From Centroscyllium fabricii (lineage: Eukaryota), in contig JBNRSN020000008.1 of the NCBI GenBank assembly GCA_051313645.2, positions 163,742,001-163,806,000 on the forward strand: a stretch of DNA of 64,000 nucleotides, in the 5' to 3' direction. The notes under the pieces are model-generated. The model saw only the letters and a program-made list of their open reading frames with translations, made no database searches and had not been told where the DNA came from. The translations under genes and the position numbers were made by a program. Positions within the stretch are counted from its first letter, which is position 1. The number at the start of each line of letters is the position of its first letter. Positions 59,419 to 64,000 of the stretch are shown here, one piece after another.

Positions 59419-59710
59419 CTATGACCTTGCACCTGTGAATATAGAGCAATTCCAACATACGGGAACCATGTCCCCTCATGGGTGTGTGCTGCTCATGCTC
59501 CACCCTTTTTGGGGAACATGTAAATAATCAAGTTCAACATTCATTAAAAAATTATTTTCTTTAAAAAAATGTTTGTGTAGCTTTTACCGAGTGAGTTTAT
59601 CCTGCCCCACTAAGGCAATTTTACTCAGCAGACACTATAGTTGTTCCCATTTTTATGACCTTTTTTTTTCAATTTTGTTTCTCCGACAAAGGCAAAGAAG
59701 AAATAAGCAC

Positions 59711-60177
59711 CTGTGTACGGTTGAAGGCAACTCGTGCAAACACAGCTTGTGATACGCTGGCTCTCTTCAGCTCATCCCGGACTTGCTGGTAGATTTCCGG
59801 AGCGACCTCCACGGATGAACTGGAAGGCTCCATAGGCTTCGCGGGCCTGGGGATAGGCGGGTGATTGAGGAACTGCTGGTTTATGGACTGGGGGTGCTGG
59901 TGCGCCAGCAGCCTGCTGACGGCTATCTGCTGGTTGATCAGGTGGGCCATGGCGAGCTGCTGCCTCACCAGCTGAGGGCTCAGCTGTGGTGACAGCAGAC
60001 TGGGACTCATAATCGGTTGCATCACCGGCACTTGGCTTCTGATGGGAGGGCTGTGCTGGAGCTGGCCGTGAGGAGACTGCTCGCTGCTCTTTGCTAAGTT
60101 TGCCAGTTGATTGATGTTCGTCAGGTGGGATGGCCGTTGTCCTAGGACACAGTACTCCGCCAGATTTTCTCTTTCGA
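59711..60177 (-). CDS. SATB2: SATB2 coding exon (linker region and N-terminal part of CUT1 domain)
   Basis: Acceptor ttttag|TC GAA and donor CAG|gtgctt. 467 bp reading (V)[15 protein letters not shown]...[44 protein letters not shown]...[28 protein letters not shown]. This matches SATB2 as recalled ([15 protein letters not shown]) rather than SATB1 ([15 protein letters not shown]). Confidence 0.96.
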
Positions 60178-60894
60178 CTAAAATTTAAAAAGAAAGATCC
60201 GCAGGAAGCACTCTTAGTGATTATTGACAACATAATAGAAAAAAAATGAATTCAGTACAAACCTAAACTATTTCAGTAAAATTCAAAAGGTACTGTTGCT
60301 CTAAATGACTTTACCTGGAAGGTAATAGCAAATAATCTGCTGCGTTAAAGAGAGAGCCCAAAACAAGTTTATTGTTGCACAAATGGGTACATTTCAGAAA
60401 TGAAAGTCTTACACAGCGTGTTCATTTTTACTCGCTGGCAGCGTGACTCCTATTATATTTAAATGGTCCAAATATAACAGGTCACCTGACACCTCGCAAT
60501 CACAAATCAATTGAAGTTGTTTGCGTTCATTTGTCTGAGGCCTGTGTTCCTCTATTAGGATCATGTGATGAACATTTCTCTTCGCACAGATTGCATGTGG
60601 AAGGCAGCGATGATGGAATATTTATGCTTTCTCTTTTTAAATGCATGTTTCTTGGCTGTGAGGGGGGTGAGGCATTGGTAGGACACTATGGACATCAATT
60701 TGCAGCAATGGTTCCTGGTGTATTTTCCAAAAGGTGACAAGGTTCATGGAGCATGTGAGCGACTGACTGGCTGTGTATTTAGATGACACTAGCATAGTTA
60801 TTTACTAAATGCACAGGGAAAGGAATATTGTCGGGTGGGTTAACTGGCACAGCTCACACCCAAATCCTCAATGGGGTTAGTGTAGGAAAGTGGA

Positions 60895-62725: not shown

Positions 62726-62962
62726 TGCGGTAACCGTGTATAACCACTGTACATAGTTGCTGGTCTATCTCTATAATCTTGTAGGCCAGGTCAGCCACAC
62801 CCCTAACTCCTCCCCTCAGGTCGGAGTATATAGGTGAGTGCAGACCTGCCCCCATTCATTCTTCACCTTGACCTCATCAGGAGACCAGCTCCATTCTTAG
62901 TTAATAAAAGCCTGTAGTTTAGGTAACTACGCGGCTTTGTATGATTAATTGACGATACATCA
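62726..62962 (+). mobile_element. 5' LTR of a Ty3/Gypsy-type retrotransposon
   Basis: TG at 62726 where CR1 homology stops; GAGTATATAG TATA box at ~62825; AATAAA at 62903; ends ...TACATCA, 24 bp before the gag ATG. Confidence 0.75.
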
Positions 62963-62986
62963 ATTTTATTAACTAATTTTTAAAAC

Positions 62987-64000
62987 ATGGAGAGCAACGC
63001 AGTGAGACCGGATCGCCTTGATATAAATCCTCAGGCGCCCGATGCTGCTGACGATTTCGAACACTTGTTTCGCCTGGTCGAGGCTTACATGAAGGCCGTA
63101 AAGGCGACGAGTGATGAGGACAAACTCCAGGTACTCTCATCACGGATCAGCGGCCGGGTGTACTCCTTTATCCGCGGCCTCAAGACTTACGAGGAAGCGG
63201 TCAAGAAATTGAAGGACAGCTACAGGCGCCCGGCCCACTCGGTCTATGCCAGGCATGTTCTGGCGACCAGAAGACAACGACTCGGTGAGTCTAATGAACA
63301 ATTTCTGCTAGCGCTCGAAGCCCTCGCACGGGCCTGCGACTGCAAAGCAAGGACAGCGGAGGAAGAGGTGAACATCCTAATCCGCGATGCCTATGTTGCA
63401 GGACTCAGATCCAGCCAGGCCCGCCAGCGGCTGCTGGAGCAGGACACACTGTCGCTTGATACCGCGATAACTCTTTCTAATGCGGTGGACGGAGCGCTTC
63501 CGAAGATGGACGCGTACAGGGACCACGACTTCCACGCGGGCACCCCTGACCCCTGGGTGACACAGGGACGGGCCGAGGCCCCCACGACGGCAGCGACGAC
63601 TGCGAAGGGGCACAGGTGCTACTTCTGCGGCCAAGGAAAGCACCCGCGGCTGTAGTGCCCCGCGAAGAATGCGACCTGCGCGCGGTGCGCGAAGAAGGAA
63701 CACTATGCTAAGGCGTTCAGATCCAGCCCAGTCTCCACCTCAAGACCCAACAGCGCGTCCTGTGAGAACAACGACGCCACTCCGTGGCTACAGGTACGGT
63801 GTTGCAGCGCGACCTAGCAGCGGTCAGCCGGGGGTAAATTGCGGGCGCCTCCAACCCCTTTAACTATACGGCAGAGGCCGGCCGCGCACGCGGCACAGGT
63901 GCCGCCATCACAAACGTGACCGCGACCAGCCATTTGCGACCCCCTGGCGCCGCCATCTTGCCCACAGCGGTCGGCCACGTACGAACCACGGGCGCCGCCA
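62987..64000 (+). pseudogene. Gypsy gag with two CCHC zinc knuckles and a premature TAG; element runs off the window
   Basis: RPDRLDINPQ..., YARHVLATRRQRLGES, LIRDAYVAGLRS, then CYFCGQGKHPRL*C. The same frame continues PAKNATCARCAKKEHYAKAF. Confidence 0.85.

Follow-up and report, generated by a model that had tools for sequence, protein, structure and literature searches.

A window of 64,000 nt from the genome of Centroscyllium fabricii was found to contain the 5' LTR and broken gag of a truncated Ty3/Gypsy retrotransposon, and this element probably begins reverse transcription by Tf1-like self-priming, using a capped 5' fragment of its own RNA that is ~52 nt long and cut just after AAUAAAA. 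The LTR ends, the absence of a tRNA site, a covarying 13-nt duplex that joins the primer-binding site (PBS) to the LTR, and the ends of chimeric genomic copies can all be read directly from the sequences. The primer would correspond to 62858..62909 (+), as judged from the chimera ends together with motif spacing.

The element has the hallmarks of Ty3/Gypsy retrotransposons (TG...CA LTRs, a PPT and a target-site duplication), and the best solved-structure match was the Ty3 RT. Its gag (62987..63655, +), taken from the open reading frame list, is broken by a stop codon at 63653-63655 within the zinc-knuckle region; the homologs are ~1200-aa Gag-Pol polyproteins from rays, sharks, crustaceans, a bug, a ctenophore and a tunicate. 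Tandem repeats of 45 bp lie between gag and protease (63919..64000, +), and the element breaks off just past the window. The first-pass annotation had placed an RT to the right of the window, which was not borne out: the window copy has no RT and ends ~200 nt past the window, and the RT was taken in its place from a full-length family copy (L062). In this copy, as in a neighboring element (L031), the pol order is PR-RT-RNase H-IN.

Three related families, each with its own pair of complementary sites, are nested within 12 kb (L031:227-10000, L063:1-1860): the truncated window copy, an element on the reverse strand and, inserted into the latter, a complete element whose LTRs are 99% identical. 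The RT catalytic motif is YLDN, not YxDD, in all three local families (L062:2685-2700; L031 pol), and gag and pol do not share a reading frame and are separated by tandem repeats (L031:4810-5730; L062:549-2049); many relatives have one ORF. A gag-pol intron was considered for family 1, that of the window, and rejected, as an acceptor AG was present in only 5 of 33 copies. Beside the element is an exon with a CUT domain (59669-60184, -), which we take to be SATB-like; the element is probably intronic and lies inside a LINE fragment, presumably CR1-like.

To define the LTR, copies were gathered by two DNA searches of the element's own 7.2-Gb genome (best 40 scored and 30 loci each). Of the 54 distinct LTR copies, 33 are 5' LTRs and 14 are 3' LTRs preceded by a PPT; a further 6 are solo LTRs flanked by 5-bp target duplications, and one is of another kind. 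The copies, including the 3' and solo LTRs, begin and end at the identical TG...CA, which delimits the 5' LTR to 62726..62962 (+, 237 nt), and no 3' LTR placed the boundary elsewhere before a TGG. Because the copies end at the same CA, the PBS 13-mer lies one base beyond the LTR, where a primer must bind. The lack of a TGG after the LTR end, seen in the first-pass annotation for the window copy, extended to the family, as none of the 33 5' LTR copies in this genome had a TGG in the first 8 nt after the LTR.

What stands at the PBS position instead is a site of non-tRNA type (62964..62976, +), starting 1 nt after the LTR end, that forms a perfect 13-nt inverted repeat with 62897..62909 (+), here called the primer arm. 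The exact complementarity between the PBS position and the LTR poly(A) region noted at first pass was therefore confirmed, and AATAAA (62903-62908) lies within the arm. The 54 nt between the two sites (62910..62963, +) comprise the remainder of R, U5 and a single spacer A, and the inverted repeat and the chimera ends suggest that they would be the template of the minus strong-stop DNA. A 237-nt LTR of the same composition would contain a perfect 13-mer complement by chance with a probability of ~2e-5, with four offsets allowed. In addition, the window stem of 13 exceeded that in all 12 dinucleotide shuffles (maximum 9), and the predicted RNA fold, in which the arm pairs with 62964-62976, includes this stem (z -2.8). 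Of the family-1 5' copies, 32 could be parsed for both arms: 23 were perfect and 9 had one mismatch. None of these nine mismatches was mirrored in the opposite arm, as expected from decay after insertion.

Analyses of more distant relatives indicated that the pairing itself, rather than its letters, has been kept. We compared 33 elements, consisting of the three local families and 30 metagenome elements; the latter were from a scan of 80 loci, 49 of which were inspected, with 9 near-copies and 10 loci without upstream LTR sequence dropped, and they still include some close pairs. No relatives were found in a viral contig collection. The arm/PBS geometry was found in 31 of the 33 elements (pairing 11-19 nt, loop 31-66 nt), with the paired letters differing between families, so the complementarity first noted in a single copy is retained through changed letters. 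The PBS started 1-3 nt past the LTR end in 31 of the 33, and the arm mostly ended in ...TAAA before GCC or ACC. The best stem was above all 12 shuffles in 32 of 33 elements; the two misses for the geometry were L077, with no stem, and L112, whose stem was of another geometry. Since the PBS letters vary between families, a fixed host primer is disfavored, and based on the absence of TGG together with the covariation we reject priming by tRNA, the host tRNAs retrieved being Lys and Cys only (among 30 loci read of 63 matches). Two near-identical metagenome copies (L071 and L074) differed by one mirrored arm/PBS change, as primer copying into the PBS would give.

Upstream of the arm there is a TATA-like box (TATATA, 62827..62832, +), 31 nt before the A of an initiator-like motif, TCATTCT (62856..62862, +). 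The spacing of these motifs, and a pile-up of chimera ends 49-54 nt before the arm end followed by a drop, point to a transcription start at 62858 (+/-1). This A is 39 nt before the arm and 52 bases before the arm end, which would fit the first-pass estimate that the arm lies ~40 nt past the likely start. RNA evidence was sought by aligning three contig runs, which showed neither ends nor splice joints.

The chimeras came to attention through a copy (L208) in which U3 through the arm is followed by antisense U5 that stops at the base after the arm. This copy led to a genome search for the junction pattern, which identified 76 family-1 places where the arm's last base is joined to antisense U5, all of which were read. 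The junction alone is uninformative, because any template switch at an inverted repeat yields the same junction, and it is the far ends that are informative. The primer-side breaks inside the LTR (40 unique flanks of 43) were at 21-48 nt in 18 cases and at 49-54 nt in 10, with 3 farther out at 55-117 nt and 9 at 118-178 nt, some of the last perhaps reflecting alignment drop-off in diverged copies. Across the start site (position 54) the breaks were distributed 28 versus 2 (p=4e-7), and the pile-up had p=0.017. The junction pattern has a floor of 21 nt, below which primer-side lengths are invisible, and an additional primer class of <21 nt may be compatible with these data. Eighteen of the 31 short family-1 chimeras were continued by sequence from within the element itself, oriented as a plus strand that had mis-landed would be, and one (L315) landed back on the PBS after a 52-nt primer copy.

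For family 2, a prediction of 52-53 nt was set down before its 26 junction hits were read. Five of the eight short breaks were at 49-56 nt, the others being at 29, 40 and 63 nt, and family 2 repeated the start-site boundary as predicted beforehand. Family 3 had only four short primer-side breaks, at 25, 33, 53 and 61 nt (44 of 45 hits read). A boundary at the start site is not explained by hairpin geometry, and it argues against a primer from the 3' end of the RNA, which would not stop there. That the chimera ends stop at the predicted start, 52 nt upstream, also supports the first-pass view that the position of the arm is unlike that in Tf1.

The other end of the putative primer, the cut site, is placed between the arm and the following GCC (62909..62910, +), as the chimeras start antisense U5 right after 62909. 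When hits were read, true breaks were present in 9 of 9 at the cut-site pattern versus 2 of 6 at a control site; the raw hit counts (9 versus 6) did not differ, the 9 versus 2 appearing only after reading, and 5 of the 9 cut-site breaks were small deletions explicable by microhomology. Two of 30 unselected family-3 copies started at the arm 3' end (+/-1). In the family-1 chimeras with a full U3 (n=33), the antisense U5 ended at 6-62 nt in 23 and at 63-119 nt in 3, and in none of the 33 did it stop at 103-108 nt, the length for uncut RNA. Ten of the 23 that stopped at 6-62 nt continued into the element interior. A stop near 54 nt can fit a 54-nt strong-stop DNA and, equally, a DNA hairpin opening in its 54-nt loop. 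No stop at the cut site was found in family 3 (44 of 45 hits read) and no clear one in the family-2 full-U3 chimeras; because it was not repeated in other families, the cut site is less secure than the start site.

A hairpin directly after the arm was above the shuffle mean in 20 of 26 families, ranking <=5 of 100 in 10 of the 26, and it was weak in family 1 (0.27 versus 0.42 shuffled). Duplexes flanking the PBS of the 'pretzel' type were not found as such in the predicted folds, and the idea that the leader generally pairs with the gag AUG was rejected, as 6 nt of such pairing occurred in only 3 of 26 families.

Several other classes of aberrant copy were observed. In family 3, 12 fold-backs of ~402 nt contained the whole U3 to the arm and then antisense sequence that continues 110 nt beyond the arm and has CA at its end (L255, L259, L262, L265, L268, L270, L276, L279, L326, L327, L331 and L335). 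Nine of the 12 had matching 5-bp flanks and they shared no private changes; to judge from these sequences they look like recurrent by-products inserted by integrase, and their fixed end may be a cryptic integrase site or another RNA start. Six plain loop inversions were present among the 44 family-3 hits read. Full LTR palindromes, in which the LTR and PBS are followed by antisense R and U3 to the LTR start, were also found (L221, L295, L378, L381, L388, L393, L397 and L398), and their layout is as would be expected if plus strong-stop DNA snapped back on its own arm.

We propose the following series of events for the window element. Transcription would start at 62858, and folding of the RNA would bring nt 40-52 into a duplex with the PBS. 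The RNA would then be cut after AAUAAAA by a nuclease, which by analogy with Tf1 may be the element's RNase H, leaving the capped ~52-nt fragment as the primer, either in cis or, as may also be, in trans. Its extension would yield a minus strong-stop DNA of 54 nt, which would transfer to the 3' R via the short segment that separates the cut from the poly(A) site. (A poly(A) site from a tailed retrocopy was sought; the single place found was another insertion into the LTR, with no tail, and was rejected.) Since just 13 of the primer's 52 bases are paired to the PBS, the plus strand could over-read the primer as far as its cap and then mis-land at internal sites, giving rise to the chimeras. Hiding of the 5' poly(A) signal would be a possible side benefit in those families with a hexamer in the arm.

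A related possibility is self-priming in which the primer comes from the 3' LTR at the distal end of the RNA, or in which a second RNA molecule acts on an uncut template. The 3' R carries the same arm, the family-3 fold-backs copy 110 nt more through the arm, and 3 of the 76 family-1 chimeras reach past the PPT on the primer side, all of which would suit such a primer. However, it would contain U3, so that over-reading should not halt at the start site as it did in family 1 (28 versus 2) and family 2 (5 of 8), and none of the 33 family-1 antisense copies stopped at the uncut length. We consider a primer of this kind unlikely, while a co-packaged RNA might provide its 5' fragment as a primer in trans. 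It is less likely still that the inverted repeat is merely structural or due to chance, the chimeras being DNA-level rearrangements after insertion; indeed we give this very little credence. Inverted repeats do promote template switches, and plain loop inversions and full LTR palindromes do occur. Yet the pairing, with a chance of ~2e-5 for one element, is retained by 31 of the 33 compared. Many of the chimeras run into the element's own interior and have their stop at a landmark of the RNA rather than of the DNA, and the element would still need a primer.

The first-pass annotation had left a choice between self-priming and a fold that hides the 5' poly(A) signal. For the latter to be the whole function of the stem, some other primer (a tRNA fragment, a host RNA or a protein) would have to start DNA synthesis. 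Formation of the stem is possible at the 5' LTR alone, a geometry that suits masking, and AATAAA or ATTAAA is present in 18 of the 31 arms (17 identified by script and L117 by eye). The other 13 arms have no hexamer, however, and in four elements the hexamer is outside the stem, unpaired in the loop, which disfavors masking as the main function. Moreover, the stem always begins where the primer must bind, the PBS letters vary by family beyond any fixed host RNA, and the over-read copies extend through LTR sequence as far as the start site. Masking with a separate primer thus seems improbable to us, and self-priming is favored, with chimeras in which synthesis starts exactly at the arm 3' end.

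Phylogenetic analyses of the RT indicated that the self-pairing elements are a lineage of their own. The RT tree had 58 rows, with three outgroup rows left out as too short and no fungal Tf1 sequence included. The 26 elements picked for a self-pairing site and 7 Gag homologs were on one side of a 100/99 branch, and fish and plant chromoviruses grouped at 100/97. In tests with 23 rows, grouping of the self-pairing families with the fish chromoviruses alone was borderline rejected (p-AU 0.045) and their position as sister to all chromoviruses was not rejected (p-AU 0.10). No chromodomain (PF00385) was identified in the L031 pol, the L062 integrase ORF, P0002, P0053 or P0076, and one was found in most fish relatives of L370. 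The self-pairing elements are one RT clade without a chromodomain and outside the sushi-like chromoviruses, with sisterhood to the chromoviruses compatible at the p-AU of 0.10.

Outgroup labels other than chromovirus are our own assumption from motifs, as is the label Mag-like for certain elements of the same genome. These Mag-like elements were a separate RT clade, with the caution that two long branches meet in the tree, and both of the two with LTR pairs had a TGG-type PBS. They share the compact layout of the window lineage, and presumably also the double CCHC zinc knuckle in Gag, but differ in having a tRNA-type PBS and in RT clade. As for a name, we assume that the window lineage is likely Cigr-1, which its short LTR and ~1200-aa polyprotein presumably match; 'Selgy', tried as a name for a self-priming Gypsy, was wrong, as it is a Selaginella clade. 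In the portions available to us, PMC6238403 and PMC8556966 describe the Cigr-1 clade of Ty3/Gypsy in Ciona, molluscs and annelids, a host range similar to that of the Gag homologs of the window lineage, and these portions make no mention of the PBS or primer binding.

To our knowledge, self-priming has been proven only for Tf1 and is assumed for its chromovirus kin. The primer of Tf1 is the RNA's first 11 bases, which RNase H releases by cleaving between bases 11 and 12 (PMC7175516, in part), and the self-primers of Tf1/sushi chromoviruses are at the 5' end of an RNA with a three-duplex fold (available parts of 10.1101/2022.12.06.519325, PMC4600332 and PMC5341516). As far as these excerpts go, Tf1/Tf2 (Schizosaccharomyces pombe), Tj1, Tosmo and Tf1/sushi elements share with the window element a PBS after the 5' LTR that is complementary to their own R and the absence of a tRNA site, and their primer is made by cutting of the RNA, as we suggest here. 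In contrast to the Tf1/sushi elements, the window lineage is without a chromodomain and in a separate RT clade, and its arm usually has ...TAAA as its last bases and in many cases includes the poly(A) hexamer. Whereas Tf1, in the excerpts, uses the first 11 bases, the arm of the window element would be 39 nt inside the transcript and its ~52-nt primer paired only at the 3' end. By analogy, the window element would work like Tf1, yet it falls outside that group by chromodomain, RT placement and, if the primer is as proposed, primer position.

Self-priming has also been predicted, with a PBS complementary to the 5' LTR, for plant Tcn1 (gypsy) and TAR/Houba/Osr-1 (copia) (PMC6317226, in part); these are of other lineages and hosts than the window element, and the part of the source available gives no mapped primer length. 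The parts seen of PMC2774666 had no match on point, and those of PMC3601003 nothing bearing on priming. The literature searched, with most subscription journals and Repbase outside its scope, contained no description of self-priming for this lineage. What the window adds would be a mapped primer length, ~52 nt, as read from the genomic copies. Taken at its broadest, our interpretation is of an animal-wide, non-chromovirus Gypsy clade that came to self-prime independently of Tf1/sushi and with a primer design of its own, having the whole capped leader through the poly(A) signal as a ~52-nt primer, a single RNA switch that rids the template of the 5' poly(A) signal and at the same time sets off reverse transcription, and chimeras preserved in large genomes that locate each end of the primer to the base. 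We offer this full combination only tentatively and expect that it is somewhat more apt to fail in some part than to hold.

If self-priming is correct, it would add to Tf1 and its kin a second lineage, one that is very abundant in animals and has a long primer, making escape from tRNA priming common, and the escape would extend to tRNA-fragment silencing aimed at the PBS. The cutting step would also have to accommodate 39 unpaired nt of leader. Predictions at the level of single bases follow from the chimeras, namely a start at 62858 and a cut at 62909/62910, and aberrant genomic copies might be read more generally as a record of reverse-transcription intermediates. A self-paired PBS would further explain why annotation based on the PBS misses such elements.

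The leader had one further feature in part of the lineage. In several invertebrate relatives (L084, L097, L101, L102, L118, L119, L126, L135 and L140) a pyrimidine tract and CAG, resembling a splice acceptor, were observed 15-40 nt before the arm, and in family 1 a donor-like motif follows the TATA box (62833-62841 in the window). From these motifs, splicing or trans-splicing of a discarded leader is possible.
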